From positions 9,610,001 through 9,674,000 of the forward strand of contig OZ281494.1 of the NCBI GenBank assembly GCA_965637545.1: a stretch of DNA of 64,000 nt, written 5' to 3'. The DNA comes from Phallusia mammillata. Lineage: Eukaryota. How positions within the stretch are numbered: position 1 is the first letter of the stretch; every line of letters starts with the position of its first letter. Below, one piece after another: positions 1 to 45,065 of the stretch. Made by a program: the position numbers and the translations under genes. The notes below the pieces were generated by a model, which worked only from the letters and a program-made list of their open reading frames with translations, made no database searches and was not told where the DNA came from.

Positions 1-66
1 CTTGTGCCATTATTAGGAAGTGTTTTGCCGAGTCTGGTTGGAGGCATAAGCAAGTTGTTTAAGTGA
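1..66 (+). CDS. C-terminal end of an upstream Polinton ORF (LVPLLGSVLPSLVGGISKLFK*), amphipathic, adenovirus pX-like tail
   Basis: Frame 1 is open from base 1 to TGA 64-66, which overlaps the next ATG (TGATG). The hydrophobic/amphipathic tail resembles protease-released Polinton core peptides. Confidence 0.55.
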   Translation, partial: LVPLLGSVLPSLVGGISKLFK

Positions 67-677
67 TGTCCGTGCAAAAAATGATGCTCATTGACCCACG
101 CATGTACCGCGATTCGACCACAAAAGTACTATCACGACTTGATGCTGACATGGAACAGATTTTAAATCGGAACGATTTGACGGATCAAGAAAAAATCTCG
201 CAATACCAGGAAGTGTTGGAAAAGTATTTGCTGTTTCACCAGAAACTCGAGAAGCCCCTGGCACTCCCTATCGTACGCAACCCCGCACCTGCAATTCAAA
301 ACAAAGCGCTGAAAACGGACAATCTCGCCGAGCAAACAACTCACTCTATAGCAAAGCCATTCGATGACGCAGCGGAAATGATTGTAACAAGCGCGCCCAA
401 AGCTCTGCAGAAAAAGGCTCGATCACTATTAGATCACTTAAAGCAGAACAACATAAATTGGGACGCGCACAAACAACTGATCTACAATGATCAAGTGATC
501 ACCGGAAGCAATATCGTCTTGGTTCAAGACGCTCTTCGTAAGCGTAAGAATGTAGATCCAATCGGTTGGAAAACATTTGCTGAAATCCTGAAAGAAACCA
601 ACACACCCGAATATATCGTCGGAAACAAAGACCGCTTCAATTTTACCAAAACGAATCCAAGTTGGAAAACCTATTAA
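66..677 (+). CDS. Conserved Polinton/Maverick protein of unknown function
   Basis: About 203-aa ORF inside the element. The pattern W...LIY...ITGSNI...DALR.RK..P.GW..F...L.E.N.P...VGN..R is recognisable from Maverick hypothetical proteins (recall, not searched). Confidence 0.7.
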   Translation: MSVQKMMLIDPRMYRDSTTKVLSRLDADMEQILNRNDLTDQEKISQYQEVLEKYLLFHQKLEKPLALPIVRNPAPAIQNKALKTDNLAEQTTHSIAKPFDDAAEMIVTSAPKALQKKARSLLDHLKQNNINWDAHKQLIYNDQVITGSNIVLVQDALRKRKNVDPIGWKTFAEILKETNTPEYIVGNKDRFNFTKTNPSWKTY

Positions 678-1708
678 TGGAAAAGATATACTACACACCC
701 TCTCAGGCGGGGAGTTTGGGCGGCGTTGATGCCTTGCATCGCTACAGCAAACAAAACCGATCCGATGTGAAACAATGGCTTTCAGGAAGCAGGGCTTATA
801 CCTTGCACAGAACTGCGCGACGTCACTTTCCTCGCAGAAAAGTGGTTGTAGGGGGAATGGGCCAACTCTTTCAAGCCGATCTAATCGATATGAAGCGATT
901 GGCTCGTTTCAACGATAATGTAAAATTTCTGTTGACCAACATTGATGTTTTTTCAAAGGTGGCGTATGTCATTCCTTTGCGCAATAAAACTTCTAGCTCC
1001 GTGGTGAAAGGCTTTTCCAGCATCCTTGAACAAACAAAGCCTTGCAAACTTCAAACAGACCTTGGCAGTGAATTCATATCAAAACCATTTCAAGCTTTGT
1101 TAAAAAAGCACGGCATTGGTTTTTACAGTACTTTTAACGCCGAGACAAAGGCTTCTGTGGTCGAACGTTTTAATCGCACAATTAAAAGCAAGCTATTTCG
1201 ATACATGACCGCGCAAAACACCCATCGCTATATTGATGTACTTGACGACCTTGTTCACTCCTATAATACATCCTATCATCGTGCAATCGGGCGAGCTCCA
1301 TTGGAAGTAAGTGACTGCAATCAGGAAATTGTCTTCCAGAAACTCTATGGCCATCCTGAACCTTTGACCCGACAACGATTTAAACCGGGTGATGCTGTTA
1401 GAATTTCTAAGTTCAAAAAGGTTTTTGGAAAAGGGTACGTTTCGCAGTGGAGCGAAGAATATTTTCATGTAAAACAGCGGCAGCCCGGCGAACCTCCAAC
1501 TTACACGCTATCAGATCTAAACGGGGAACTCTTGCAGGGGACGTTTTACGAAGCGGAACTGCAAAAAATAACTCCGCCGGAAACATTTCAAATTGAAAAA
1601 ATAATAAAGCGAAGAAGAAATAAATTATACGTTAAATGGAAAGATTATTCGCATGATTTCGATAGTTGGATCCCGGCGTCAAGCGTTCAACATGCCAGTG
1701 GTCACTAA
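677..1708 (+). CDS. Retroviral-type (rve, DDE) integrase with C-terminal SH3/KOW-like region and chromodomain
   Basis: Catalytic triad motifs QADLIDM, LQTDLGSEF and VVERFNRT are present. The C-terminal FQIEKIIKRR..LYVKWKDY..DSWIP is a chromodomain. ATG 677 overlaps the upstream TAA. Confidence 0.95.
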   Translation: MEKIYYTPSQAGSLGGVDALHRYSKQNRSDVKQWLSGSRAYTLHRTARRHFPRRKVVVGGMGQLFQADLIDMKRLARFNDNVKFLLTNIDVFSKVAYVIPLRNKTSSSVVKGFSSILEQTKPCKLQTDLGSEFISKPFQALLKKHGIGFYSTFNAETKASVVERFNRTIKSKLFRYMTAQNTHRYIDVLDDLVHSYNTSYHRAIGRAPLEVSDCNQEIVFQKLYGHPEPLTRQRFKPGDAVRISKFKKVFGKGYVSQWSEEYFHVKQRQPGEPPTYTLSDLNGELLQGTFYEAELQKITPPETFQIEKIIKRRRNKLYVKWKDYSHDFDSWIPASSVQHASGH

Positions 1709-1925
1709 GATTTGTGCATCTTCTGGTAAAATTGTCTTCATTTGCCAAATAATTCTAATTTATGGTGTTGTGATTGCCAGCATATTCAATATTTCATCGC
1801 CTCAGCAAACAGAAAAACAGCTTTGGATATCCTTGTTGTCGAGTTGCTTAGGTTACCTGTTACCGAACCCGAAACTGAAGTTCAAAAGGAATGCAGCAAT
1901 TCAACCTAGCCCTGCCGAGCAATAG
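1692..1925 (+). CDS. Small two-transmembrane Polinton protein
   Basis: ATG at 1692 gives 77 aa with two hydrophobic stretches (IVFICQIILIYGVVIASIFNI and LWISLLSSCLGYLLPNP). It overlaps both neighbouring ORFs. Confidence 0.7.
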   Translation: MPVVTKICASSGKIVFICQIILIYGVVIASIFNISSPQQTEKQLWISLLSSCLGYLLPNPKLKFKRNAAIQPSPAEQ

Positions 1926-2619
1926 CAGCTTGGATTTTTATCCGGATAATACAGTGACAAAATACACCACCCGCTTGCCTAGGTCGTTTGCACTACAAGG
2001 CGAGTGGGAACTCGCTCTGGACGAAATTTTTATACCGAAAACATGGAACACTTTTGCGAACGGAGAAGCTTGGCTCAAAATGAAAACTAGGGGTGGAACA
2101 CAGCGCTTGGTTCTTCCCGGGGGTCATTACACAGCTGCATCCTTCGTGCAGGGCTTTCGATCCCTTTTAAGCTTGTCCGAAACAGAATCAAATGTGAGCT
2201 ACTTGAGCATCACCAATCGACTACGTTTAAGCATCGGCGACAATTATCAAATCAAACTCAGCCCCAAGCTTGCCGCCATTTCAGGCTTTGATACCGGGTA
2301 TTTATCAGAAGGCGCTCATTACTCAACTCGACCGCTTGATTTGGCGCAAGGAAGACATCTGATCTCTGTGTATTGCGATATATTGGAGAGCCGAGTGGTC
2401 GGCGATGCGCATGCCCCTCTATTGGCCATCGTCGGAAGTGATTCGGTGCACTTTACAAAAATAATTCATCGCCAATACGCTAAACTTCGATTTCTCAGGG
2501 TACAAAGAAAGGTATTTGATTCTATTACAATTGATATCCGAGACTCAACCGGAAAACCAGTGCCATTTGAAAGTGGGAGCGTTGTGGCGAACTTGACTTT
2601 GCGTGCAATAAAATCATGA
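1891..2619 (+). CDS. Minor capsid protein (penton, single jelly-roll)
   Basis: N-terminal LPSNSS..YPDNT...YTT.LP....L.GEWE.AL.EI and C-terminal VYCDI.E...VGD..APLL...I.IDIRD..G..VPF motifs are typical of Maverick minor capsid proteins. Confidence 0.85.
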   Translation: MQQFNLALPSNSSLDFYPDNTVTKYTTRLPRSFALQGEWELALDEIFIPKTWNTFANGEAWLKMKTRGGTQRLVLPGGHYTAASFVQGFRSLLSLSETESNVSYLSITNRLRLSIGDNYQIKLSPKLAAISGFDTGYLSEGAHYSTRPLDLAQGRHLISVYCDILESRVVGDAHAPLLAIVGSDSVHFTKIIHRQYAKLRFLRVQRKVFDSITIDIRDSTGKPVPFESGSVVANLTLRAIKS

Positions 2620-3029
2620 ACGGTGTTTGTGCAACAGCTTGTCCTTATCAAACCTACTATTTGAATCAGGCGGGTAACGGCCACCCCGTGTTTCACGGAG
2701 CTTCCTATCAACGCGGGCACGGTTTGGGGAATTTGTTTGCGGGTTTGGCTAAAAGCGTGGTGCCTCTGTTAAAGAGTGGCGCTAAAACCGTTGGAAAACA
2801 GCTGATCAGGTCGGGTGTCGAATTCGCGGGCGATTTAATTTCAGGCGTCAATCCGAAAAAAGCAGTCATTCAAAGAAGTAAAGAAGCCGGAAAAAATGTT
2901 TTCGGCTTGGTGGCCGATGCTCTTCAAAAACCACCGAGACAACGCAATAAAAAACGTAAACGCGCGCCTTCCAAAGCCAGTCGCAAAAAGGCAAAGCGGA
3001 CGAAAGGACGTGACATTTTTAGTGGATGA
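2616..3029 (+). CDS. Putative virion core/DNA-binding protein with adenain-type cleavage motifs
   Basis: YY.NQAGNG and YQRGHG|LGNLFAGLAKSVVPLLK motifs, followed by an Arg/Lys-rich C-terminus (RQRNKKRKRAPSKASRKKAKRTK). Confidence 0.75.
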   Translation: MNGVCATACPYQTYYLNQAGNGHPVFHGASYQRGHGLGNLFAGLAKSVVPLLKSGAKTVGKQLIRSGVEFAGDLISGVNPKKAVIQRSKEAGKNVFGLVADALQKPPRQRNKKRKRAPSKASRKKAKRTKGRDIFSG

Positions 3030-4333
3030 GAATGACCTGTCACCCCAAGTCAGCAGAATGTGTTAAAAGCGAGTTGGATTTGTTTATGATTCCTCCGACA
3101 GATACAACTTGTACTGAAGGTTACTTTAGCGAATACTTACCCATCAGCACCATAGGAGAAGCATCTCCGATAGAATTCCACATTTCACCTACAACCGATG
3201 AGTACATAGACTTGTTTCACACCCATTTTCAAATCCGCGCCAAAGTCCTCAACGCGGATGGATCTGCTTTGGCGAATGACGCGGAAGTGTCGGTTGTCAA
3301 CAATTTTGCGCATAGTCTGTTTAGTCAAGTGGATTTATCAGTCAACGATAAATTGGTTACCTCTGCAACAAACACTTACAGCTATAGGGCGTACATTGAG
3401 ACTCTGATGTCATTTGGCCCGGCAGCGAAACAATCTTACCTAACAAGCGGTTTGTATTACAAAGATACAGCGGGAAAATTCGATACTATGTCAGGGGCAA
3501 ACGGCGGATATGCCAAACGCAAAGCCTTTATCGCCGAAAGCAAAACAGTAGATCTTTACGCGAAACCGCATCTTGACTTGTGTAACCAAGACCGTTATGT
3601 TTTGAACGGGGTTGGTTTGAAATTTCGTTTTCTACGCAATTCGGATGAATTTGCTTTGATGTGCGCCGATGACGCAAACTACAAAATTCGCGTGGAAAAT
3701 ATGTCATTGTTCATCCGAAAAGTGAAAATCAGCCCTGCCGTTCAAATAGCACACGCGAAAGCGCTACTCAAATCCAACGCCTTGTATCCGATACGACGAA
3801 CTGATGTGAAAATTCTAAGCATTGGAGCGGGAAACATGGATTTAAATCAACAGAATCTATTTCTGGGACAGGCTCCTAAAAGGGTTGTTGTTGGACTCGT
3901 AGAAAACAGCGCTTACAATGGAACGAGATCCAAAAATCCATTCAATTTTAAAAATTTCAAAGTGAATTTCATGGCCCTCCACATCGGAGCAAAAACTGTT
4001 CCTTCGAAAGTCCTAAAGCCTAATTTTGACGAAGATCTGTTCATGCGTTGTTACACCTCCATGTATACGGCCACTGGCAAGTTCTTTGAAGATCTCGGCA
4101 ACAACATATCTCGCAAGGATTACAAAAACGGTTTCGCGCTTTTTTCTTTCAATCTTTCGCCAGACTTAAATTCAGGAAGTCATTTTGGTTTAAAGCAGAA
4201 GGGGAACATACGCTTGCAATTGCAATTCGCATCGCTGCTGACAGCAACGGTGAACGTCATCGTTTATGCAGAGTTTGATAATATTTTGGAATTGAACAAA
4301 GACAGAACAGTGCTGTTTGACTACTCCGCCTGA
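3026..4333 (+). CDS. Major capsid protein (double jelly-roll, hexon-like)
   Basis: 435 aa. C.KSELDLF..PPT, PIEF.I, NNFAHSLFSQV, YRAYIETL, NPFNF and VIVYAEF motifs are characteristic of Maverick major capsid proteins. Confidence 0.9.
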   Translation: MRMTCHPKSAECVKSELDLFMIPPTDTTCTEGYFSEYLPISTIGEASPIEFHISPTTDEYIDLFHTHFQIRAKVLNADGSALANDAEVSVVNNFAHSLFSQVDLSVNDKLVTSATNTYSYRAYIETLMSFGPAAKQSYLTSGLYYKDTAGKFDTMSGANGGYAKRKAFIAESKTVDLYAKPHLDLCNQDRYVLNGVGLKFRFLRNSDEFALMCADDANYKIRVENMSLFIRKVKISPAVQIAHAKALLKSNALYPIRRTDVKILSIGAGNMDLNQQNLFLGQAPKRVVVGLVENSAYNGTRSKNPFNFKNFKVNFMALHIGAKTVPSKVLKPNFDEDLFMRCYTSMYTATGKFFEDLGNNISRKDYKNGFALFSFNLSPDLNSGSHFGLKQKGNIRLQLQFASLLTATVNVIVYAEFDNILELNKDRTVLFDYSA

Positions 4334-4774
4334 ATGGATTCTCTCACCATAAAACGCATTTTAAACGAAGATAAAAAAGCCAGACGCATCTTCCGCGGAG
4401 TGTATCCGAAAGATCAAATAAACGGCATCGAGGTTCATGCACCGGCCGCGTACGTTTTTAATACCGATGACCACGATGAACCCGGAACTCACTGGTGTGC
4501 TGCTTATTTCGACGACAGCGGCAAGGGTTACTATTTCGACAGCTACGGATTAATGATTTTTCCCGAATTTTACAACTTTATGTCCGACAACGCCACTCAG
4601 TGGACGTTCAATAATATCCAACTCCAAAGCTTTCAATCCTCGGTTTGTGGACATTATGTAATTCTGTTTGTATTCGCTGTATCACGAAACATCTCAATGG
4701 AAGACTTTGTAAACTCTTTTTCGTCCAATTATATAGCAAATGACTTGGTTGTACAAACGTTATTCGATGAATAA
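4334..4774 (+). CDS. Adenain-like (adenovirus-type) cysteine maturation protease
   Basis: Catalytic motifs GTHW, YFDSYG and Q....SSVCG (His-Asp-Gln-Cys) are all intact. Confidence 0.93.
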   Translation: MDSLTIKRILNEDKKARRIFRGVYPKDQINGIEVHAPAAYVFNTDDHDEPGTHWCAAYFDDSGKGYYFDSYGLMIFPEFYNFMSDNATQWTFNNIQLQSFQSSVCGHYVILFVFAVSRNISMEDFVNSFSSNYIANDLVVQTLFDE

Positions 4775-4775
4775 A
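4770..4775 (+). terminator. AATAAA polyadenylation signal overlapping the protease stop codon
   Basis: GAATAAA spans the TAA stop at 4772-4774 at the end of the co-directional cassette. Confidence 0.5.
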
Positions 4776-5024
4776 TTCTCCCCGAAGCGCTTGGCAATTG
4801 ACTGCGTCAAAACCGTCTTTGCAATATTACGTCAGAAAACAGGTCTGCAGGCGCGAATTAATTGGCTTCGCCAAGCCCTTTGATGGGCCTGGTAAACACG
4901 ATTGCCTAGCGTACAATTGTTCCCATCCAATTGCCCTCAATAGCAATGCAATTCAGGAAACAATTTCCGCAAGCGAGGCCAGCTCACCACAAACGTAAAG
5001 ATAATGCTATCTTGCGGTTTTTAC

Positions 5025-5527
5025 CGTTTAGGGTTATATCAATCTGGGCAACAAACTACCTAGGGTTATACCTAATACATACCAAATAGTTAGGAAAATC
5101 ATCCATAGGATTACATTCATTACCCTCTAAAGGGTTATAGTTAGAATTATTAGCATCTCAAATTAACGTCTAAACTTAGGGTTATTACCCTTAGGATTGA
5201 AGCTCCTAAACTTTGGGTCAGAGTCTAAACTTAGAATGATTACCGTCTAAACCTAGGGTTAGGGTTAGGGTTAGCATTTAAACCTAGGGTCTTAACTAGG
5301 GTTAGGGTTAGGGTTAGCTCCTAAACTTTGGGTCAGAGTCTAAACTTAGAATGATTACCGTCTAAACCTAGGGTTAGCATTTAAACCTAGGGTCTTAACT
5401 AGGGTTATAGTTAGGGTTAGCGTCTAAACTAAGGGTCTAAACTTAGGGTTAACGTCTAACCGTCTATAGGGTTAGACCGGAAGTAATTGAGCATACTTGG
5501 TGGGTCAAAGCCACAATATATACTACT
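5025..5527. repeat. Polinton right terminal (probable TIR) region with telomere-like TTAGGG/CTAGGG repeats and an internal ~114-bp tandem duplication
   Basis: CTAGGG(TTAGGG)2TTAG at 5253-5274 and 5296-5317, with scattered TTAGGG. AGCTCCTAAACTTTGGGTCAGAGTCTAAACTTAGAATG occurs at about 5201 and 5315. Confidence 0.75.
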
Positions 5528-6250
5528 CAAATTATGCTTCCTTGGTTAAAGATTAGCATCACTTTACGCCATGATGTGTTACATAACTTATGGCCCTAAA
5601 ATTCGTGCAACTGTTAACTTTAAAGTAGAAAAATACAGTCAATAAAGTTTCCCGAAAATATCTTAAAACATGGCAGTGCGGGCATTTCCTGGAGCAGCAA
5701 CCTGTCGTGCTGAAGATGGCTTCTTCCGTTGTTTGCACACTGGCGTTTGCATTCCACGGTACAAAGTTCGAAGTTACGGAAGCGACTGCTGGCTGGGTGC
5801 GGTGGCAGACGAGAGCGATGAGGATAGAGGTCAGCTCAAGAAACTATTTTTTCAAATGCTTTCAGTTTAAAGTATCCATTCATCATAACAACGATAACAC
5901 ATAGGACAGTTGCTTACTTTAAAAAAGTTAAATTTCAGAACCCTTGAATTGCACCGATGATGAATTTAAATGCCGCTCTCTCAAAAAGTGTGTACCGCGT
6001 TATCTTCTCAACACCAAAGAAAGCTGCAAATTAAACGAGGGCTTGATTCTTCCATGCAGAAATCAGACAGGTTGGTTGGTTGTTACTAAACTGCAACTTC
6101 AAATCCATTTATATTAGTAGTTTTTTATGGAAAGTTCCTCCTTTAACAATTCAAAACATTTTCATTCCTCCCTAATAAACTACACAGTAAATGTTTAACC
6201 TTACAAAGATCATTTAAAATTAGGTGCTTTTTAACTTTACGGTTTATATC

Positions 6251-6430
6251 CAGTGGTGGGTTTCATTTTTTTTGTCTGGCGGTTCTATCACAAAAGTCTT
6301 ATTTTTCAGCCGGTTCTGTTACAAATAGTCCATTGACAGTAACCAGTAATGCTAACCGGTTCGCTGATCTCATAAAATTTCGTGAGACGGTTCTATACAA
6401 CCGGTGCGGACCGGCTGAATCCCACCACTG
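6251..6430. mobile_element. Small MITE in GPCR intron 3 (also in copy 4 at about 60428-60606)
   Basis: TIR CAGTGGTGGG.TTCA / TGAATCCCACCACTG. It is absent at the orthologous site in copy 3 (about 53186-53195). The TSD is degenerate. Confidence 0.75.
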
Positions 6431-8094
6431 TTTACGTCCCTAGAACTATAAAGTGTTTGTTTACAAATAACGTGTACAAGTTAAAGTCAATTTCTCCCAT
6501 CAGGTTTCAAAATTTCCGGTAAGGTACCACTGCGCTATATGTAGACAAGTCACTGTTCCATTTATTGTATCATAGAATTCACGTGCAAACGCAGCAAGTT
6601 GTGTATTCCACGTTGGATGGTGAAGAACGGCAAGCGCAATTGTGACACAATGGTAGTGAAGGACGGAAGTGACGAAACCATCGATGTAACCTCATGTGAC
6701 GCTTCAGAATTTCCCTGTTCCAACAACACTTCCTCACCACTACAGTGCATTCCGAGGGCATGTGTTGGAGACGGTGTGAAGGATTGTGCAAATGGAAGAG
6801 ATGAAATTACGAACTTGACAAGTTGTTACAATGACACAGAGTTTCGGTGTAACACAAACGGACGTTGTTTGGAGCGACATCGAGTGATAAATAATTTTCC
6901 TGATTGTCCTGATGGTTCCGATGAAAAGTAAGCTCTTAAATGCATTCCAGATAAAGAGTTTCGATGCCACGACAACGGTCGTTGCATTCCGCGCTCGTGG
7001 CGAGGAAACACCTTCGTGAACTGTAACGATGGAAGCGACGAAATTCCATGGAGCGCAAACGAAACGTGCTTTGATGGCGAATTTCGTTGTCACAACGGCA
7101 AGCGATGCATTTCCATCTACTTGTTGTGTGACGGCATGGATCACTGCGGTGACTGTAGCGACGAGATTGAGAGCTGCACTGAACCCAGGATGCTTCGATG
7201 TCCTAACGAGCCGGGTACGTGTGTGCTTCCCACCTATTCCTGCGATGAGTTTGCAGACTGCCCAGAAAATACCGAATACGTCAAACATACCACTGGCTTC
7301 AAGTGTAACAAAGTTGTGGCCGGAATTGACAGTACTGTGTACTGCGTTCTGCCCCAATGGACATTAACTGATGAATATCCGATTTGCCAAGATTCGTCAG
7401 ATTTGTGTTTTGTCAACGGAACTTTCAACTGTCATCGGTGTTTGTATTCGGACATGATTATTTCACCCAAACAGTTATGTGACGGTATTTTTGACTGTCC
7501 TGACCTAACAGACGAATGCCTTTGCGCCCGAAATGTTCCGGGTTCGGCTTCGTCAGTATATCTGTGTGACAATGTGTGCTATGGTGATTCTGGCAACCCT
7601 GCTTGTTCGTTGTGCAGCATGGGGCAAGTAAAATGTGGATTGGAAGACGTATGTATTTCCAAATCACAAGTGTGCGACGGTAAAGTGGATTGTCCTATCA
7701 CAAAGCTTGATGAGCTTCACTGTGGCAGATCAACCAATCAGGACAACGTAATTAACTTAAAAAATTTTCATTGCGACCCCATTCCACAAGAAATAAGCAA
7801 AGTTATTCAAACAGTGTTGACCAAAGATGTCATAAACACCTTAGCTCCTTCGCAAGCTACAAAGTACGAGGCTGTTTGGCAATAGAAGAGAAGTATACGT
7901 ATTTCATGATTATGGTTTCTGTTGTTGCAGGTGTAACAACGTTGTGGAGTGTTCAAGATTCGAAGACGAGTGCAGCGAGAGAGCAAATTGTAGCATCAGA
8001 CATCCACTGTGCGACCAAATTCCTATGGACGTGGTAATGTTTTGACTGAGGGGTATTTCCATCCTTCATACTTCCTGTAATGTATAGTTTAAAC

Positions 8095-8679
8095 CAGTGG
8101 TCTTCAACCTGTGGGTCGCGACCCCAAGTGGGGTCGCCTAAACTGTTTCTGGGGTCGCCATAAATTCAAGTTATTGGCGTTTAAATTTATTACCTAAAAA
8201 AATGATACGTTTTCGTTCTAGTTCGCAACCTTTGCTCATGTTCTGCAGTATAACTTGGTAGCTCCAGTCACAATCTAATCATTGTGATGCAGTAATCCAC
8301 ATGAAACACAGTCATCTAACCCATTGTTACGCCATAGAGCCTCATTAATGACATATTGTGTCCAAAATAATACAGCGAGTACAGGGAAATATACATGATT
8401 TTACTGATTTCTGCAAACTGGTGAGCTTTAACGCGAATTAGACTGGTCAAAGTAAATAAAACGTTTGGGTTCTAACATTTAAGCGTAATAACGCACGCTG
8501 AATGTTAATAGTTAAAGTATACTGGAAAATTGAGCGTTCATGTTTACATAAAAATAGTTTCAGTTTTGACATTACTACAAACATTTTTCTCCCTATTGGA
8601 AAAAACGGGGTCGCATGTAAATGCTGATTTAATTTTCTTTTAAATTGGGGTCGCCTTTAAAAAAGGTTGAAGACCACTG
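8095..8679. mobile_element. hAT-type MITE
   Basis: TIR CAGTGGTCTTCAACCT / AGGTTGAAGACCACTG with an 8-bp TSD GTTTAAAC (8087-8094, 8680-8687). Empty site in copy 4 at about 62260. Confidence 0.9.
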
Positions 8680-9146
8680 GTTTAAACTATTGAATGTGGA
8701 AGCCTTGATTTGCATAAAGTTCGTGCTTATACTTCTCTTTTGACACTTATTCATCATCTATTGCCACTTAGTGCCTAAGTTAAGACAGTGTTACCATATG
8801 TTGACTACAACTGTGTTACGAAAATCTTGCGACCAATTTCTTCTTAGATGTTTATCTCTGGACACTTACTCGGTGGAGATCTACTGGCAGTGCAAGCACG
8901 AAAATGTCAACTACATTTTGGCTTCAGTTCCATTCTAGGTTCATCAATTTGCAACGGATATGAGGAATGTCAGGAAGGTTACGACGAAGCGATTTGCCTC
9001 GGTCGCTTTCGATGCGCAGCAGGACAAGTCGAAACTTTAGTTTACGGTTAATAGATTGTCATTCAGACCTAAAAAGGCTGTATTTGTTTGTTGATTATTT
9101 AGTTATGTGTTTAATACTTTTTGCATTACTACAAAAGCTGGCATAC

Positions 9147-9497
9147 TAGGGTTGTAAGTCGGGTCGGACTTTTCGGGCCTAGGTTTTTCAAATCGGGCCT
9201 GACTTCACATTCTGTGTACGCAACATTTTACAAATAAAATCCCCTAGCTAAATAGACTTTTAATGGACTAATGCCTAACAGCCCTAAAACGTCTTGTTTA
9301 AGCCAATGTTTGTTACTTTGCATTGTGCATGTCAACTTTACGATTTTCTGTACAGACGTACTTTTTGTAAGCTTTCATGTATTTGCCGGTCAAACAGTTT
9401 TGAGCCCTCTCAAAAACGATTTAGGTTCGGGCCGGGTTTGTATGCTTTGGTTCTGGCCGGATTTGTGCTAGAACTTCCGGCCCCGCCTAAAACTCTG
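9147..9497. mobile_element. Old degenerate MITE in GPCR intron 6, shared by all four copies
   Basis: TAGGGTTGTAAGTCGGG...AAACTCTG ends with TCGGGC subterminal repeats, related to the 30652-31059 element. A degenerate TSD (TGGTATAC/TAGTATAC) is visible in copy 4. Confidence 0.6.
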
Positions 9498-12400
9498 TAG
9501 TATACAATTTACATAAACCAATCTTTCATACTAAAGTGGATAACTTCGTTCAGGTGTTCGTGATCGTGTAAGCATCCCGGTCCAGAAAACATGCGACCTG
9601 GTCTCCGATTGCATCAACTCCACAGACGAACTTAACTGTTCCGAATCCACACACTTCTACTGCCTCAACAAGTCCCCTCCATATGTACCAATAACCAAAG
9701 TTCTCGACGGCGTTTCAGACTGCAGCGATTCCTCAGACGAATGTCCTCCGAACTACTTCAAAAACGACGCACTTGCCTCCAACGAGCAAATGATCAAAAT
9801 TCGAGCTCTCGAAATCCTGGTCTGGTTTATGGCAATATTGGCGTTGTTTGGCAACCTCGCAGTTATGATAAACACTGCGCTTTACTTTAAACAAACCAAG
9901 ATCGATCAATTACAAAACAAAGTAGGCTTGATCAACAACGCTTTGATTTTCAACTTAGCAATAGCTGATTTTCTCATGGGTATCGTTCTCCTGGTTGTTG
10001 GAATCAAAGCGGTTGAGTTTTCAGGGAGTTACTGTCTTTTTGACAAGTTGTGGAGATCTAGTAACCTGTGCAACGCAATCGGTGCCATGACAGTGATTTC
10101 AAGTGAAACATCAGTGCTTACATTGGTTTGCATCACATCATATCGTCTCTACATCATTTGTAAACCTTTCGAGTCTCGTTGTATCAGGGGCAGAATTGCA
10201 ATAATGTGGATCTGTATCATCTGGTTTGTCTCCTTTCTTCTTGCTTTGCTTCCACTTTCTACCGTCTTGTCTGGAAATATGTTAAACAGGGCTCAAATCA
10301 CGCCTAGTCCTTATTTCTATTCTGATCAAGTGAAACTTACCGACTTCAGGCAATTTGCTCTGCGAATCGCTGCTTTAGGCAACAAAACTCAGCAAAATAT
10401 TGAGTCATACAATTGGGACGAACTTAACGCTTATCTAACCTCGGAACAAAGCTCCGTGGCGCCATCCACTGTCGGTTATTTTGGTTACTACAGCAGCAGT
10501 AGCGTTTGCATTCCGCGTCTGTTTCGCATCAGCAAAAACGAATCGGGCGTCAACCCAATGTCGTCCATTGTAATCTCGTTCAACTTTGTGGCACTTCTTT
10601 ACATTGCTTCGTCTTATGTTGCCATTTACATCAAATCGAGTGGCAATGAGGTGACTAAATCCAACAAGGTGAAGAACAAACAGAATGTGAGCATGCAACG
10701 GAAAATCACATTGCTCATAGCAACTGACATGTGCTGCTGGTTACCGATTTGCATCATGACATTTCTTAGTATGTCAGGAGTTGTTCTGCCTCCGGATTCC
10801 TATGCAGTTTCAGCAGTGGTTCTCCTGCCCATCAACAGCTCACTCAACCCGATGATTTGCACCAACTTTCCACAGATGGTCTATTCCAAAATCCGATTTC
10901 TTATCAACAAAGCCAGAAGTTGCTTCAATTTCTCGCCATTGCGCAACGCCGTGCATCGACCATCAGCCGAGCTTGAAATGCCCAAGAAAAATGTCACTAA
11001 AGTGTAACCTTCCAATTTTTTAACGTAAATTGGCCATAACACCAAGAAAGGCACGCTACTCTTTGTGCCTAAATTTAGATAATTGTTGTCTATTAATTAT
11101 ATACGTGGCCTACCTTTTGTCTGACGTTTCTGTAAATAAAACCCTTGCGCTGTCAGTAGCCAGTGATGCCCTAAAATGTTTACGTTTATGTGGATAAGTG
11201 AAACTTTTACCAAGTAAAGCTGTATACGAATCCCCGCCACTTGACGCTTGTGCAACGGTATAGCTAAAGCGTGTTCGGCATCTTTTCACCATTTGCGCCC
11301 CTTTGCTGTTTGCGCTCCTTGCCGTTTAACGTTACGCAGCTTTATCCGCTTGGGTAAATGCTATAGCGCGACTGTGCTGCTACGATTTGTTCTACGAGCA
11401 AACGAAATTCAAATCAAGCACGTCCTTGAAGGAGTAGAGTGCTAAAAACATGATTTGCAGACACAAACTGTTGCTGTTGTGTGTTTTTGTACAGACGGCA
11501 TGATGTTGCTTACAAGTATGACATGTCTTGTTTGAAACTGAACTTGTTGACTTATTCCAATACCGTATTCAAGAATTATGCTTTAATATTTTTACTGAAA
11601 AAAATTGTTGTTTGAATATTACTGCCATTTGTCACTTCTTTCAATTACATTGTCGTTTTGCCTGGACGCAGCGACATGTTCATTATTTCCGCAACTCTCT
11701 CGATGTTAGAGTGTTCAGTTGTTTTCGCAACAGAAAAATTTAGTTAAACCCTCTTTTCTATTTTTTATTTCAAAAAACCGACCATTGTAACACTGCAGTT
11801 CTTTTCCTGGAATATGTATGTACTTACAATTTCGTTAGACGTCGCTTATGTGTTGTGACTAAAATTGCCTAATTTACAGCAGTGTTCAGTTTTCTGGTCA
11901 CTGTAGGCAATATGTAATGTACAACGGTATTGGTTCTCAGTTAAAGCGAACAGAAAAGCGTCACAATCATCTTGTAACAAAAAAAATGGCCAATAACCTG
12001 ACACAAAGAAACATGTGACGTTATAAGAGTCAACATATCTTAACTCATACACCAACATTGTCCTGACATTAATCTAAAATAATCGCACACAATCAAATTA
12101 CGTACCAACTTGTTAGAAATCCAGGTTTAAACTACAGACACTTTGACGGATGTTTAGCACTTTAAAATGAACAGGCATTCATGCTTTTATAGCTGCACAT
12201 AATACAAGGTATAATGTTAGAACATACATATTTCTAAACTAAAATAGTTCAATCACAAACTGCGACTCATAAAAAAGCTGCTCAGAGCACAGAAAGAAAC
12301 TGCAAAACGTGGCCTGCGCAACATAGCACTAGCAATGGTATCAGACGCATTGTTACGTTTTAGTTTTCTCCACCAATCATGGCAGGCGCTTTAATACGTC

Positions 12401-18724: not shown

Positions 18725-20286
18725 CGACGGACCAATTAATCTCAGTTTAATAACAAACAACACATTCTGATTTAGTTTTAATCGGTCATATAACTATGAA
18801 CTGCATATAATAGTAAAAGACAAAGAAAGCGTTTTTGCATTCATTTATTGTTACAACGAGACGTTGCTTGCGTTTGCTTTCTTTTCCTGTTTCTGGTTTA
18901 GGCTATAGTGATTTGCCATTACTTACTGTGACGTAACAAAGCGCCTGCTATGATTGGTGGAGAAATCTTAAACGTAACAATGCGTCTGATATAGTAGTGC
19001 AATGTTGTGCGGACCACGTTTTACACTTTCTTTCTGTGCTGTGCCTGTGAGCAGCCATTTTAGTAGTCGCAGTTTGTGATTGAACTAATTTAGTTTAGAA
19101 ATATGTATGTTCTAACATTACAGTGTATTATGTGCAGCTATAAAAACATGAATACTAAAGTTGATTTTAAAGTACAGGTTAAAAAATCCTGTAGTTTTAA
19201 TCTGTACTTCTAACAAGTTGGTACGTAATTTGATTGTGTGCATTTATTTTAGATTAATGTCATGACAATGTTGGTGTACGAGTCACATGTTTCTTTGTGT
19301 CAGGTTATCGGCCATTTTGTTGTTTTCTATATTACAAGATGATTGTGACACTTTTCTGTTCGCTTTAACAGAGAACCAACACTGTTGTACATTACATATT
19401 GCCTACATTTACCAGAAAACTAAATACTACTGTGAATCAAATAATTTTAGTCACAACATAGGAACGTGTAACAAATTGCAAAATCGGTACATGTATCTTC
19501 CATGAAAAGAATTCCAGAATTACAATGGTCGACCTTGAAACAGTAAAAAAAACGAGGGTTTAAGTAAATTGTTCTTTTGGGAAAACGGGCAAACACATTA
19601 ATATCAAGAAAGTTACAGAAATTATGAACTTATCGCTGCGTCCAGCCAAAACGACACTGAAAATGGAAAAAGTCCAAAGTGGCAGAAACATTCATACAAC
19701 AGCATTTTCAGTAAAAATAATAAAGCATATTTCTTGAATACAGTCTTGAAATAAGTCAACAAGTTCAATTTCAAAGAAGACATGTCATCCTTGTAAGCAA
19801 CATCATGCCGTCTGTGCAAAAACATGCAACAGCAAGAGTTTGTGTCCGCAAATAATGTTTTTAGCACTCTACTCTTTCAAGGACGTGCTTGATTTGAGTT
19901 TCATTTGCTTGTTAAACAAATCGTGACAGCACAGTCGCGCTATAGCATTTACCCAAGCGGACAAAGCTGCGTAATGTTAAACGGTAAAGCAAAGGGGCAC
20001 AGATGGTAAAAAGATGCCGAACACGCTTTAGCTATACCGTTGCACAAGTGTCAAGTGGCGGGGCTCGTATACAGCTTTACTTAGTGAAAGTTTCACTTAT
20101 CCACATAAAGTTATACATTTTAGGGCATCACTGACATCTGACAGCGCAAGGGTTTTATTTACAGCAACGTCAGACAAAAGGTAGGCCACGTATATAATTA
20201 ATAGACAACAATTATCCAAATTTAAGCACAAAGAGTAGCGTGCCTTTCTTTGTGTTATGACCAACTTAAGTTTTAAAAATTGAAAG

Positions 20287-23200
20287 TTACACCTTCGTGA
20301 TATTTTTCTTGGGCATTTCAAGCTCGATTGATGATCGATGCACGGCGTTGCCCAATGGCGAGAAGTTGAAGTAACTTCTGGCTTTGTTGATAAGAAATCG
20401 GATTTTGGAATAGACCATCTGTGGAAAGTTGGTGTAAATCATCGGGTTGAGTGAGCTGTTGATGGGCAGGAGAACCACTGCTGAAACTGCATAGGAATCC
20501 GGAGGCAGAACAACTCCTGACATACTAAGAAATGTCATGATGCAAATCGGTAACCAGCAGCACATGTCGGTTGCAATGAGCAATGTGATTTTCCGTTGCA
20601 TGCTCACATTCTGTTTGTTTTTCACCTTGTTGGATTTTGTCACCGCGTTGCCACTGGACTTGATGTAAATGGCAACATAAGACGAGGCGATGTAAAGAAG
20701 TGCCACAAAGTTGAACGAGATTACTATGGACGACATCGGGTTGACGCCGGATTCGTTTTTGCTAATGCGAAACAAACGTGGAATGCAAACGCTGCTGCTG
20801 CTGTAGTAACCAAAATAACCGACAGTAGATGGCGCCACGAAGCTTTGTTCCAAAGTTAGATAAGCGTTAAGGTCGTCCCAATTGTATGACTCAATTTTCT
20901 GCTGAGTTTTGTTGCCTAAAGCAGCGATTCGCAAAGCGAATTGCCTGAAGTCGGTAAGTTTCACTTGATCAGAATAAAAGTAAGGACTGGGTGTGATTTG
21001 AGCGCTGGTCAACATATTTCCAGACAAGGCGGTAGAAAGTGGAAGCAAAGCAAGAAGAAAGGAGACAAACCAGATGATACAGATCCACATTATTGCAATT
21101 CTGCCCCTGATACAACGAGTTTCGAAAGGTTTATAAATGATGTAGAGACGATATGATGTGATGCAAACCAATGTAAGCACTGATGTTTCACTTGAAATCA
21201 CTGTCATGGCACCGATTGCGTTGCACAGGTTACTAGATCTCCACAACTTGTCAAAAAGACAGTAACTCCCTGAAAACTCGACCGCTTTGATTCCAACAAC
21301 CAGGAGAACGATACCCATGAGAAGATCAGCTATTGCTAAGTTGAAAATCATAACGTTGTTGATCAATCCTACTTTGTTTTGCAATTGATCGATCTTGGTT
21401 TGCTTAAAGTAAAGGACAGTGTTTATCATAACTGCGAGGTTGCCAAACAACGCCAATATTGCCATAAACCAGACCAGGATTTCAAGAGCTCGAATTTTGA
21501 TCATTTGCTCGTTGGAAGCAAGTGCGTCGTTTTTGAAGTAGTTCGGAGGACATTCGTCTGAGGAATCGCTGCAGTCTGAAACGCCATCGAGAACTTTGGT
21601 TATTGGTACAAATGGAGGTGACTTGTTAAGGCAGTAGAAGTGTGTGGATTCGGAACAGTTAAGTTCGTCTGTGGAGTTGATGCAATCGGAGACCAGGTCG
21701 CATGTTTTCTGGACTGGAATGCTTACACGATCACGAACACCTGAACGAAGTTATCCACTTTAGTATGAAAGATTGGTTGATGCAAATTGTATACTACAGA
21801 GTTTTGAGCGGGGCCGGAAGTCATACAAGCCCGGCCCGAACCTAAATCGTTTTTGAGAAGCCTGTTAACTGTTTGACCGCCCAATACATGAAAGCTTACA
21901 AAAAGTACGTTTGTACAGAAAATCATAAAGTAGACATACACAATGGAAAATAACAGACGTAGTCGTTTTAGGGCTGTTAGGCATTAGTCTAGCAAATGTC
22001 TATTTAGCAACGTTATTTTATTTTAAAAATATTGCGGAAACAAAGTGTAGGCCCGAACGTGCACGGAAAAGTTCGACCCGATATAAGTTACAAGTCTGAT
22101 ATATCAGCTTCTGTAGTAATGCAAAACGTATTAAAGATATAACTAAATAATCAACAAATAAATACAGCATTTTTTAGGTCTGAATGGTAAAAAAATCTAT
22201 TTACTGTAAACCAAAGTTTCGACTTGGCCTGCTGGGCATCGAAAGCGACCGGGGCAAATCGCTTCGTCGTAACCTTCCTGACAATCATCATATCCATTGC
22301 AAATTGATGAACCTAGAATAAAACTATAGGCAAAATGTAGTTGACATTTTCGTACATGCACTTTCATTGGATCTCCACCGACTAAGGATCCAGGGATAAC
22401 CACCTGAGAAGAAATAGGTTGTTACGCAGAGTTTCCAAAATTAGGTTGCAGGCAACATGTGGTAACCCTTTTTTAACTTAGGCACCATATGACAATAGAG
22501 GAAATCAAAGTTTTTCAACTTTCGATAGAACAAACTACACTGCAGGAAGTGTGAAGGATGGAAATACCCCTAAGTCAAAACATTACCGTGCCCATAGGAA
22601 TTTGGTCGCACACTGGATGTCTGATGCTACAGTTTGCTCTCTCGCTGCACTCGTCTTCGAATCTTGAACACTCCACAACATTATTGCACCTGACAACAAC
22701 AGAAACCATAATCATGAAATCGTATACTTCTCTTCTATTGCCAAAACAGCCTCGTACTTTGTAGCTTCCAAAGGAGCTAAGCTGTTTATGACATCTTTGA
22801 TTAAGATCGATTGAAGAACTTTCCTTTTATCTTGTGGAATGGGATCGCAATGAAAATTTTTCAAGTTAATCACGTTGTCCTGATTGGTTGATTTACCGCA
22901 GTGAAGCTCATCCAGCTTTGTGATTGAACAATCCACTTTACCATCGCACACTTGTGATTTGGAAATACATACGTCTTCCAATCCACATTTCACTTGCCCT
23001 ATGCTGCACAACGAGCAAGCAAGGTTGCCAGGGTCTCCGTAGCACACATCGTCACACAGATATACTGACGAAGCCGAACCCGGAACATTTCGGGCGCAAA
23101 GGCATTCGTCTGTTAGGTCAGGGCAGTCAAAAATACCGTCACATAACTGTTTGGGTGAAATAATCATGTCCGAATACAAACACCGATGACATCTGAAAGT

Positions 23201-25792
23201 TCCATTGACAAAACACAAGTCTGATGAATCTTGGCAAATTGGATATTCATCGGTTAATGTATATTGGGGCAGAACGCAGTACACAGTTTGTTCAATTCCG
23301 GCCACAACTTTGTTACACTTGAAACCAGTGGTATATTGGACATCCTCGGCATTTTCTGGGCAGTCTGCATACTCATCGCAGGAATAGGTGGGAAGCATAC
23401 ACGTATCGGGCTCGTTAGGACATCGAAGCATCCTGGGTTCAGTACAGCTCTCAATCTCATCGCTACAGTCACTACAGTGATCCATGCCGTCACACAACAA
23501 GTAAATGGGAATACATCGCTTGCCGTTGTGACAACGAAATTCACCATCAAAGCACGTTTCGTTGGCGCTCCATGGAATTTCGTCGCTTCTATCGTTACAG
23601 TTCACGAAGGTGTTGCCTCGCCACGAGCGCGGAATGCAACGACCGTTGTCATGGCATCGAAACTCTTTATCTGGAATGCATTTAAGAGCTTGCTTTTCAT
23701 CGGAACCATCAGGACAATCAGGAAAATTATTCCTCACTCGATGTCGTTCCAAACAACGTCCGTTTGTGTTACACCGAAACTCTGTGTCATTGTAACAACT
23801 TGTCAAGTTCGTAAGTTCATCTTTTCCATTTCCACAATCCTTCACACCGTCTCCAACCCATGCCCTCGGAATGCACTGTGACGATGAGGAAGTGTTGTTC
23901 GAACAGGGAAATTCCAAAGCGTCGCATGAGGTGAGGGTGATGGTTTCGTCACTTCCGTCTTTCACTACCATTGTGTCACAATTGCGCTTGCCGTTCCTCA
24001 CCATCCAACGTGGAATACACAACTTGCTGCGTTTGCACGTGAATTCTATGATAAGTTGACATAAATGTGAGTATCTTGCCTACTTGTAGGACAGTGGTAC
24101 CCAACCGGAAATTTTAAAACATAAAAGGGAGAAATCTACTTTAACTAAGTTAGTACACGTTATTTGTAAACATACACTTTAGCTCTGGGGATATAAACCA
24201 GAGAGTCGAACCGGAACTGAACCCGAACCCGCGAACTGGTTTGGGCGGTTAATTTCATTAAACCCGACCCGAACCGCGAACTGCGATTTTCTAAAAACCC
24301 GAACCGGAGTTGAACTCCATATTTTGTATGGCGTTGAACCCAAACCCGAACCGAACCAGTAAAAAACGCAGTATGTTTTATATTTTGTGATTTTTTTCAA
24401 AACAGCACACTGAAGAATTCACGAGATGACACTTACAGGGCGTGTCAAAAACAACAGTGCTCAGGAAAAAAAATTGAGTGTGATGAGGCCAGGTAGATGA
24501 TGGGTAGAATTAAATTAAAACAAATAAAAATTTGAACCGGTTTGAAAACCGCAAACCGGTTCGGACCGGATAATTTGCCCAAACCGAAACAAAACCCGAA
24601 AATATACATTTTTAAAAACCCGAACCGAATCCGAACCCTAAAAAACAAAACCAAGTGAACCCGAACCGAACCTGAACACATATGACAAGCGGTTCGACTC
24701 CCTGATATAAACCGTAAAGTTAGTAAAACACATAATTTTAAATGATCTTTGTAAGGTTCAGCATCAGGGAGGAATGAAAATGTTTTGAATTGTTAAGTGA
24801 GGAATTTTTCCATAAAGAACCACTAATATAAATGGATTTAAATTCGCAGTTTAGTAACAACCAACCAACCTGTCTGATTTCTGCAAGGAAGTATCAAGTC
24901 CTCGTTTAATTTGCAGCTTTCTTTGGTGTTGAGAAGATAACGCGGTACACACTTTTGGATAGAGCGGCATCGAAATTCATCATCGGTACAATTCAAGGGT
25001 TCTGAAATTTAACATTTTGAAGTAAGCAACTGTCCTATACAGTGCCGGATTAAGGATCGGCTGCCCTGTAGGCACGTTTCATAAGTGGCCTGAAAATCAG
25101 GGTTGCCAAATAAAAATTAGAATTATCAGTGTTGCCAAATCATTGTCACAAAGAAAAGTGGCCTGGATTTTTGACTGGCCTGTATAGGCACGTGTCTACT
25201 TTGCCTAATGGTTAATCCGGCACTGGTCCTATATGTTATCGTTTTTATGATAAATGGACATTTTAAAGAGTTGGAAAATAATTTGTTGAACTAACCTCTA
25301 TCCTCGTCGCTTTCGTCTGACAACGAATCCAGCCGGCAGTCGCTTCCGAAACTTCGCACTTTATAACGTGGAATGCAAACGCCAGTGTGCAAACAACGGA
25401 AGAAGCCATCTTCAGCACGACAGGTTGCTGTTCCGGGGGATCCCCACACTGCCATGTTTTAAGATTTTTTCAAGTAATTTTGTTGCCTGTATTCTCTACT
25501 TTAAAGTAAACAGTTGCACGAATTTTGGGGTCATAAGTTATGTAACACATCATGACGTAAAGTGGTACTAATCTTTAACCAAGCAAGCATAATTTGACAC
25601 AATTAAACGTTAACTGTCAAAAAATCTATGTGAGACGAAATTATACGTAATAATAAAACCAGTTACATTTAGCAGTTTATGAGTGAAATTTTGCCAACCT
25701 TGTTTCAAAGGACGATATACGCTTTTTCCTTACCACTTACCTTGAGGTATTGAGATCCAAGAAAGAACAACAATAAGTACAAGTGGTTCCAT
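20287..25792 (-). CDS. LDLa-repeat rhodopsin-class GPCR copy 2 (GRL101/RXFP-related, no LRR block seen), about 1126 aa; exons 25792-25741, 25448-25296, 25001-24870, 24045-22758, 22689-22587, 22403-22205, 21740-20287
   Basis: Signal peptide MEPLVLIVVLSWISIPQ, then roughly 13-15 LDLa-like C...C.DGSDE modules. The 7TM region has GNLAV, NLAIADLLMG, TDMCCWLP and NSSLNPMIY. Exons total 3381 nt with no stop found. Confidence 0.9.
24199..24704. mobile_element. hAT-type MITE with CCGAA/AACCG subterminal repeats, in intron 3 of copy 2
   Basis: TIR CAGAGAGTCGAACCG / CGGTTCGACTCCCTG with an 8-bp TSD ATATAAAC. Confidence 0.88.
25040..25225. mobile_element. hAT-type MITE in intron 2 of copy 2
   Basis: TIR CAGTGCCGGATTAA / TTAATCCGGCACTG with an 8-bp TSD GTCCTATA. 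It is absent from copies 1, 3 and 4. Confidence 0.9.
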
Positions 25793-26454
25793 TCTTTAGT
25801 TTGGCAAGATATGTTTCAACAAAATGCAAGTTTACGCAAAAAGTTATTAACATTCCTTTTATGCGGCGTTCGGTGGGCAAAAAGCAAAGTAATAGATTAT
25901 TTTTTCCAAATATTATTTTTAAACAATCAGTATTTTTGAACACGCACTTTAGCTTATCCTACATGCGTGTCACTGAAAATGGTGCTTTAATTAAGCTTCC
26001 TGCAATTTCAGGTATAAATGTAATCTTTGACAAAATACAGTCGATTTTTTTATTAAATCTGCCTTATTGATATCAAGTTGTTGTTTTTCAAACGCAAAAT
26101 TTTTCCCCGACTATTTCAGGTTTTTCAATCAAAATACTTCAAGTCTGATAGATTTGAGAACCAGAGGCTTACTCTTAACCTAATCTCAGCTATATAAGGA
26201 AGTGAAGCACTATTATGAGTCAAGTAGCGGAGCCGATTGTCCCAGCATATTCTGCTACACAAAAGTGAAAGTGATTGTTTTTTGTTAAGGTTTTATACAG
26301 GACACTATTGTCTATATTTAGGACCTACGTATAGGCTATACAAAGCAGGCTTGAAGAAGTGATTAAGTGGGTTACCTGTTTCCTACTATCATAATCTTCC
26401 TTTCATCACTAATTGAAATGAGCATTTTGGTGAACGTGTCTTGTTATGTTTCGA

Positions 26455-30651: not shown

Positions 30652-31059
30652 CAGAGTTGCAAGCGGGCCCGAAATCTGAGCCCGAACCCGGCCCGAACCC
30701 GAAAGTATAAGCCCGAAGCCCGGCCCGAACCCGAAACGTTTTTGAGAAGCCCGTTTAGGCCCGAAATTTTGATTGACAGGCCTATCCACGAAAGCCTTGC
30801 AACAAAGGATGAGAAAGAAAAAAGATAAAGACAACAAACACAATGAACAATAGTAGACAATGAGGTAAACAATACGTTTTAGAGTAGGGTGGGCATTAGG
30901 TCAAAGCCAGAGAATTGTTACTAAAAAGTGGCGGCAACGGAACTTAAAGTAAGGCCCGTTTTGAGCCCGTTTTCTGACAAATACCTAAGCCCGAACCCGG
31001 CCCGAACCCGGCCCGAACCCGAACCCGGCCCGAAAAGCCCGGCCCGACTTGCAACTCTG
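30652..31059. mobile_element. hAT-type MITE with GGCCCGAACCC subterminal repeats
   Basis: TIR CAGAGTTGCAAG / CTTGCAACTCTG with an 8-bp TSD AGGCTAAC. Confidence 0.9.
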
Positions 31060-44589: not shown

Positions 44590-45065
44590 AGTAGAAACCA
44601 ATTATTTACCCCACTAGCCCCCCCAAAAGGGTGAATTGTTTAAGTATTGTTCGAATGGGATGAAATTTGGACAGTTTGTTTATTGTGCCATTGTTAGGTG
44701 TTGATTGTTGTTTTCCAACCTGTAGCCCCAACATTTACCCGCTAGCCCCCTAAAAAAGGGGATTTTTTTAAACAATGCCTGAATTGGATAAAATTTGGAA
44801 AGCTTGTAGAGTATGCCATTTTTGGTGTTGATTCTTGTGTTCTGCCCTGTAGCCCAAACCATTACACCTGGCCCCCCAAAATAGGACAATTTTTTAAACA
44901 ATGTCTGAATTGAATAAAACTTGGGCAGCTTGTAGTGGGTGCTATCTATGGTTGTTGATTGTTGTTTTCCAACCTGTAGCCCCAACATTTACCCCACTAG
45001 CCCCCGATGGGTGATTTTTTTTAACAAAGTCTGAATTGAATGAAATTAGGACAGCTTGTGCCATT
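44590..45065. repeat. About 125-bp tandem repeat, roughly 4 degenerate units, inside a HINE-like element
   Basis: Recurring ATTTACCCC.CTAGCCCC, TTTTTTAAACAATG.CTGAATTG and TGTTGATTGTTGTTTTCCAACCTGTAGCCCCAAC. Confidence 0.75.

Follow-up and report, generated by a model that had tools for sequence, protein, structure and literature searches.

In a 64,000-nucleotide stretch of the Phallusia mammillata genome (hereafter the window), we found that the terminal inverted repeat (TIR) of a Maverick/Polinton carries a slippage-expanded array of mostly single, outward-facing YTAGGGTTR sites. Judging from the motif and its arrangement, the array may recruit a host TRF-type protein near each end of the element, a reading to which we assign a probability of about 0.5.

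A Maverick/Polinton (adintovirus-type element) of 14,081 bp, spanning G000:C1:9601447-9615527, ends inside the window, where positions 1-5527 make up its right-hand part; it starts with AGTAGT and terminates in ACTACT. By searching the element's own genome, the left end was located 8.5 kb ahead of the window start. The right TIR (4703..5527, 825 nt) is partnered by an 876-nt left TIR beyond the window (G000:C1:9601447-9602322); their blastn alignment has 877 columns, 4 mismatches and 53 gap bases in two gaps, one of which is an extra 52-nt unit in the left TIR's array. The target-site duplication CAAATT follows at 5528..5533 (+), with an identical 6-mer ahead of the left end, and paralogous receptor-gene copies in the window carry CAAATT once, as an empty site. 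Two other copies of the same family (family 1), B and C, have target duplications of 6 bp each, AGTGTT and GACAAT. The end motif (AGT)2//(ACT)2 and a 6-bp target duplication belong to the Maverick definition in the accessible part of PMC8097293. The window element has both, together with long TIRs, an rve integrase, an adenoviral protease and a capsid. The labels PZ, PW and minor capsid are presumptive, being given by gene order. On the plus strand, an ORF at 63..677 (PZ by position) and two ORFs at 1891..3029 (minor capsid and PW by position) had no Pfam match and are placed by the gene order in the text available from PMC8097293; between them lies the integrase with a C-terminal chromodomain (662..1708; Pfam rve 4e-9, Chromo 2e-5), and after them the major capsid protein (3026..4333; 1689 homologues, of which P0004, 51% identical, has Pfam DJR-like_dom at 1.5e-7) and an adenovirus-type cysteine protease (4334..4774; Pfam Peptidase_C5 1e-4, over the cut-off), the final 72 nt of which lie within the TIR. 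The packaging ATPase gave weak P-loop/Pox_A32 matches, below cut-off. Long polymerase frames occur at the expected position, in five pieces in the window copy and three in copy C, as assembled; they open with C2H2 zinc fingers (Pfam 3e-9; L022:542-2668, L019:5652-7409) and are 22% identical (1e-12) to a 1164-aa frame of the Maverick L087, while Pfam pPolB gave no match.

The surrounding DNA contains four copies (one inverted) of a gene unit with LDLa repeats and a rhodopsin-type GPCR, at window 5534-11762, 19545-26002, 52073-57848 and 59226-64000, and the Maverick is inserted inside one of them. Short CCCGAA-rich repeats at 30668-31034 and a 126-bp tandem repeat at 44604-45059 were also seen in the window.

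The subterminal array (5028..5475, +) comprises 13 YTAGGGTTR sites (at 5028, 5060, 5176, 5253, 5259, 5265, 5296, 5302, 5308, 5368, 5399, 5411 and 5443), one ATAGGGTTAG (5466-5475) and nine CTAAAC, all outward-facing. The first-pass annotation had described TTAGGG, CTAGGG and CTAAAC repeats at 5025-5480, within a Polinton terminal repeat and with the G-rich strand pointing to the element end, and all of this was borne out: the terminus is at 5527, and the plus strand of this segment holds 8 TTAGGG (out of 33 matches in the whole window) and 16 TAGGG, while the minus strand has no TTAGGG, TAGGG or YTAGGGTTR. In 2000 dinucleotide shuffles of 5025-5480, the means were 1.28 for TTAGGG, 4.03 for TAGGG, 0.13 for YTAGGGTTR and 0.37 for CTAAAC, and none (0/2000) matched the observed counts. 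The mirror array to be expected in the left TIR was also found. Other details of the original description needed adjustment. Motifs do extend over the roughly 450 bp given for the array, but they are dense only at 5166-5475 (48% of bases in motifs), 5025-5165 having isolated sites (13%), and 52 nt separate the array from the terminus. The duplication reported as 114 bp has a period of 115 bp (5201..5420, +, 1.9 copies) and is present in both TIRs of the window copy and missing from copies B and C. Two CTAGGG(TTAGGG)2TTAG blocks exist as stated (5253-5274 and 5296-5317), but they lie 43 nt apart, essentially both in the first unit and not one per unit.

The recurring unit is a near-palindrome, CTAAAC-NN-AGGGTTA, followed by 0-2 additional hexamers, and the longest perfect run in this right-hand array is 21 nt. 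Ten of the 14 TAGGGTT cores in the window copy have no preceding hexamer, and five of those ten are C-led; decayed variants (TAGAA, TTTGGG, TAGGAAA) also occur. Outside the array, the conserved outer segment of 52 nt (5476..5527, +) contains ACCGGAAGT, which we take to be ETS-like, as well as GGGTCAAAG and the terminal ACTACT. ACCGGAAGT directly borders the array; copies B and C and a diverged single end, D, have it twice, and the outer segment of the window copy differs from that of D at one of 52 columns.

Seven family-1 ends were scored, namely two each from the window copy, the 3.9-kb deleted copy B and the 14.1-kb copy C, and end D. All seven retain the array, with 10-16 YTAGGGTTR per end and none on the inward strand. 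CTAAAC occurs 8-11 times per end, but only five times in end D, and the longest perfect runs range from 14 to 40 nt, the maximum being in copy C. Unit order and number vary among the copies, end D having a 19-bp unit repeated 5.5 times, and the suspicion that slippage was at work thereby proved right, the array being clearly built by it. In the array region end D is only 66-69% identical, and the sites are still kept, while the outer 52-64 nt are nearly invariant among the ends. An AGGG core is found in every amplified unit observed (13, 19, 25, 43 and 115 bp). Since unit order and number differ and yet the sites are kept, slippage appears to remodel the array quickly while motif and polarity persist. 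Between the window copy and end D, divergence was 3/68 in motifs versus 66/218 in spacers, and 14/90 versus 55/196, a comparison that leans towards motif conservation but is biased by the alignment. The composite pattern CTAAACNNAGGGTTA had 48 matches in the genome (control 10), 40 of them at family-1 ends or remnants. Old gene-less derivatives of family 1, split by small inserted repeats, form three repeats of a locus at G000:C1:23.81-23.95 Mb (L024, L025) and still hold TAGGGTTA/CTAAAC remnants. Contigs from four public sequencing runs, covering 4300-5750, included array length variants, gains and losses of sites and other insertion flanks. No telomeric tract was seen at the 20 contig loose ends shown out of 44, with repeats skipped at 5245-5283. 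Contig depths for the protease (33.7, 821) and a host TRF-like gene (24.7, 334) gave no sign that free copies are abundant, depth not being equal to copy number.

The array is not a general property of Mavericks in this genome. A capsid search identified two further families, with 70% (family 2) and 47% identity. The family-2 TIRs (about 1.1 kb; e.g. L064:7093-8201 and L067:8351-9520, with 6-bp target duplications in three copies) had no TAGGGTT site in any of six ends, and at the equivalent position they have a different, 32-bp array rich in GGAAGT/TCAAG words, with (GTCAAG)3 near the end. In one family-2 copy a cluster of three sites lies beyond the TIR, in an apparent inserted host repeat. 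Nothing beyond a word of 16-19 nt is common to the TIR DNA of families 1 and 2, which are sisters (support 100) in a FastTree capsid tree of 87 rows, from which L157 was left out as short. Family 3 (L072:2525 to L077:2058; three near-identical copies, 99.7-100%) has a TIR of 52 bp without the array, a polymerase frame at the right side with a weak DNA_pol_B_2 match, and tandem arrays of 141 and 258 bp. The proposed conservation across related Polinton families thus finds no support within this genome. Since families 2 and 3 are without it, the array is dispensable for Mavericks of the same host, and it would seem to be one of several alternative cis-modules kept by Maverick families at this position.

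Beyond this host, we examined 82 capsid loci, made up of two viral loci and the 80 best out of 544 loci confirmed when a third of a metagenome collection was scanned. These form 65 non-redundant groups, and 43 of the 82 have at least 350 nt past the annotated genes on a side. With the motif fixed ahead of the scan and a cluster defined as at least three same-strand TAGGGTT in 500 nt, clusters were found at four of the 65 non-redundant loci (L093, L098, L142 and L128), in each case in non-coding DNA past the gene block and directed away from the genes. L093 has an ACTACT end, with five CCTAGGGTTA at roughly 125-515 nt from it on the inner side and unrelated DNA past it; its cores are all non-tandem, C-led and A-ended (5/5 each), and this locus alone among the four displays the end itself. 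In L098 a 25-bp unit occurs four times where the contig breaks off, its core being TAGGGTTT in 4/4, T-ended and so off-consensus at R; in L142 four sites, all A-ended, follow the protease at a distance of about 440-520 nt. Both contigs stop before an element end. L128 has three weaker sites and no located element end. Neither L093 nor L098 has tandem hexamers. The capsids of the four loci are 43-48% identical to that of the window and are placed in another starred clade of the FastTree tree, and the motif is the sole sequence that the loci share with the window TIR. Among 5,644 7-mers with 15-60 total occurrences, TAGGGTT was the only one clustered at four loci; none reached three, and the mean was 0.057. 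A neutral preference for telomeric motifs in animal DNA survives this control. In 365 kb of host background, TAGGGTT occurred 36 times and formed one cluster, and CCTAGGGTTA showed no genome-wide enrichment (110 vs. 170 in the control).

No cluster was found in the remaining 61 of the 65 loci, many of which lack terminal DNA, nor was the array seen in L087, L104 and L130, related loci with recognisable ends. L164/L167, with three sites of mixed orientation, were excluded from the count. L087 is a complete 12.3-kb Maverick from IMG/VR, the TIR of which (L087:1-285) has four inward-facing CTAGGG words and no TAGGGTT. In IMG/VR, neither the capsid alone nor the exact family-1 pattern returned any locus; capsid and integrase alignments gave three distinct loci, none with the array, and the paired CTAGGGTTA pattern gave 121 loci, none of which encodes any of six Maverick proteins (tblastn; full flanks for 80 of 121). 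A PC4-like gene lies beside the TIR in many related Mavericks (L093, L098, L087, L128 and others), and none was seen in family 1. The outward-facing recurrence of TAGGGTT in distant Mavericks is new here. On the capsid tree, repeated gain and repeated loss of the array may each account for its distribution.

Candidates for the host side of the proposed interaction were also found. Contig C1 terminates in about 3.3 kb of TTAGGG, so that the host telomere repeat is TTAGGG, as assumed, and interstitial telomeric tracts occur at L026:6040-6169 and L086:4168-4257. Out of 16 host Myb matches two were of the telobox type, which supplies the TRF/Myb-type proteins that had been invoked. One is an intronless 429-aa frame at L300:688-1977 (G000:C8:14153432-14154721) with a telobox Myb (KDRWR) and human TRF2 as its best match (4e-12); the other is an exon at L297:1507-1644 (G000:C5 near 6.3255 Mb) best matching human TRF1 (1e-11). 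The C8 gene matches an uncharacterized P. mammillata protein in UniRef at 99% identity, lies on contigs of 1.5-2 kb in two runs that we guess to be RNA, and has relatives of which several carry 2-3 Myb domains. Its N-terminal domain was modeled as helical (mean pLDDT 79.7) with a structural match to TRFH (TM 0.57-0.69), and an Atlas lead of 0.84 also pointed to TRFH. The alignment behind the model probably contained known TRFs, as its profile matches TRFH at 1e-59, and a stricter profile matched no TRFH-only chain. Because the source alignment is thus partly circular and the stricter profile has no such match, the TRFH fold of the N-terminus is probable, not proven. Single-sequence AlphaFold gave a pLDDT of 39, phmmer with the N-terminus against PDB returned chance matches only, and Pfam TRF (PF08558) had no match in the genome, where the control was equally silent. 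The accessible portion of the survey in PMC8653790 lists no tunicate TRF ortholog and a single TRF per invertebrate. In contrast to the latter, two telobox Myb loci are present in this host, and the modeled C8 gene is a candidate for the tunicate TRF missing from that survey.

What the array does, if anything, has several possible answers. It could be a neutral telomere-like microsatellite, in which a short TTAGGG seed, arising by chance or where telomerase healed a broken end that the other TIR later restored, was expanded by slippage, passed from one TIR to the other and binds nothing relevant. The variable unit order and number fit this, extending even to the 52-nt indel between the two TIRs of the window copy, as do the duplication of degenerate units together with perfect ones, the array-less sister families and the interstitial TTAGGG tracts of the host; telomerase capture would likewise yield outward G-rich polarity in every lineage. 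We nevertheless consider this somewhat unlikely, as most sites are single nonamers within non-telomeric units, many of them C-led, the distant L093 and L098 arrays contain no tandem hexamers at all, the AGGG core accompanies every amplification, and no other comparably rare 7-mer recurs as TAGGGTT does. Another protein than TRF might instead use the array in the manner of an enhancer or origin, be it a host factor reading TAGGGTTA or CTAAAC-NN-AGGG or a protein of the element itself, for instance the one with C2H2 fingers opening the polymerase frame. Adenovirus ITRs bind host transcription factors. The alternative array of family 2 at the equivalent position, the adjoining ACCGGAAGT, doubled in three copies, CTAAAC being as regular as TTAGGG, and the CCTAGG-centred words that are present in L087 and L093 would all agree with such a binder. 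The word in common with the distant Mavericks is, however, (C/T)TAGGGTT and not CTAAAC, and it equals the TRF consensus, for which reason we regard a different binder as unlikely.

Structure in the DNA itself seems a far poorer explanation. A G-quadruplex or hairpin on the displaced single strand could shield the end or pace strand-displacement replication, and copies B and C do have canonical quadruplex motifs (4/7 ends; G4Hunter 1.56-1.76), the window copy a relaxed one, while the plus strand of 5160-5480 has a folding energy of -42.6 kcal/mol, 40 mononucleotide shuffles giving -28.6 +/- 3.9. Neither TIR of the window copy has a canonical motif, though, end D has none of any kind (G4Hunter 0.72), and in L093 and L098 long units separate sites of one G-tract each; the quadruplex suggested at the outset is accordingly not a conserved feature, and such a role is very improbable. 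Least probable of all, to the point of being hardly credible, is a true telomere function or telomere-targeted integration in the style of HHV-6 and Marek's disease virus, which the first-pass annotation had cited for their repeat-bearing termini; subtelomeric enrichment, which it had proposed to examine, is likewise not supported. Outward G-rich polarity, identity with the host repeat and the distance of two of four loci from a contig start, 1.06 and 2.2 Mb, speak for it. Yet for the other two the nearest contig end is 8.8 and 9.6 Mb away, target duplications of 6 bp flank all three two-ended copies in ordinary, non-telomeric DNA (that of the window in the receptor-gene repeat), and the array is internal to ends reading AGTAGT..ACTACT. 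The array was therefore rejected as a telomere or herpesvirus-type TMR, given perfect runs of 14-40 nt at most, a stop at least 52 nt inside the terminus and integrase-type insertions.

Recruitment of TRF remains the best reading in view of the Polinton TIR, the mirror array, retention in the family, TTAGGG telomeres and host TRF-type Myb genes. The human TRF1 consensus is YTAGGGTTR, and its dimers need two motifs at any spacing or orientation, according to the available text of PMC3241663. The leading C of many sites would not be written by telomerase and yet is allowed by that consensus. As human TRF1 accepts any spacing and orientation, host TRF dimers would bind pairs of array sites. The ends themselves would owe their formation to protein priming and integrase, telomerase having no part in it, and the bound TRF would act on the linear, terminal-protein-primed form, where it could damp end repair and end joining and/or aid the start of replication from the terminal origin close by, in the way that TRF2 works at EBV oriP. 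CTAAAC could have arisen by decay of a half-site on the opposite strand, or a partner protein could bind there. With the outward motif in both ends and in several distant Mavericks, such elements likely borrow the host telomere protein for their ends. That unrelated animal Mavericks have independently gained, or kept, outward TRF-site arrays, and that a shelterin cloak there blocks damage sensing and end joining, is a tentative and more doubtful extension of the sequence pattern.

The closest functional analogue, if the array does bind TRF, is EBV oriP, where three single TTAGGGTTA nonamers recruit TRF1/2 and replication is impaired on their loss (PMC13223232, PMC3533235, in their accessible parts). 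In both cases several, largely monomeric sites stand in a viral cis-element beside other protein sites, and the often C-led monomers next to a conserved terminal segment would fit the oriP design. Differences are that oriP has three sites and an internal, ORC-dependent origin on a circular episome, whereas the array puts 10-16 predicted TRF sites beside the terminal origin of an element that is linear, replicates by protein priming and integrates. Host-identical TTAGGG is also present near the genome termini of HHV-6 and Marek's disease virus, but in the available text of PMC3533235 and PMC5601938 the repeats are long tandem arrays that drive telomere recombination, as opposed to short interrupted sites in an element with integrase-type, non-telomeric insertion. 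A precedent for host telomeric repeats in TIRs does exist in the Oxytricha TBE transposons, likewise DNA transposons; as far as PMC4724952 is accessible, these are Tc1/mariner elements with one short tract at the very TIR end, unlike the dispersed array found 52-500 nt inside the Maverick. Adenoviruses, for their part, protect their ends by destroying MRN (PMC13685816, in the part available). Animal Mavericks in the accessible text of PMC8097293 and PMC8502044 resemble the window element in size (~14 kb), long TIRs, (AGT)2//(ACT)2, 6-bp duplication, integrase, capsids, protease, ATPase and polymerase frame; their TIR length and end motifs are described there, with neither cis-elements for host proteins nor a subterminal TRF-site array like that of the window element. 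The string 'telomer' has no occurrence in these two papers or in the coral survey PMC11131425. No report of such repeats in Mavericks was found in the literature as available, PMC13685816, PMC5544889 and PMC5601938 included, and Repbase entries and the founding papers of 2006-2007 may mention them. The term '19-mer' had no matches in the literature searched. The 19-mer repeats of Tlr1 are a possible analogue.

Lastly, the surprising part is the recurrence of the motif across Maverick lineages. An oriented motif that recurs and equals the TRF consensus would put a name to the host partner with which a linear virus that replicates by protein priming protects its termini. The analysis also brought up a probable TRF gene of an ascidian, where the accessible part of PMC8653790 had no tunicate ortholog. 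If the reading is true, the viral use of shelterin would be extended beyond herpesviruses, and the Maverick life cycle would gain in TRF its first assigned host factor, with telomere mimicry in a protein-primed virus lineage.
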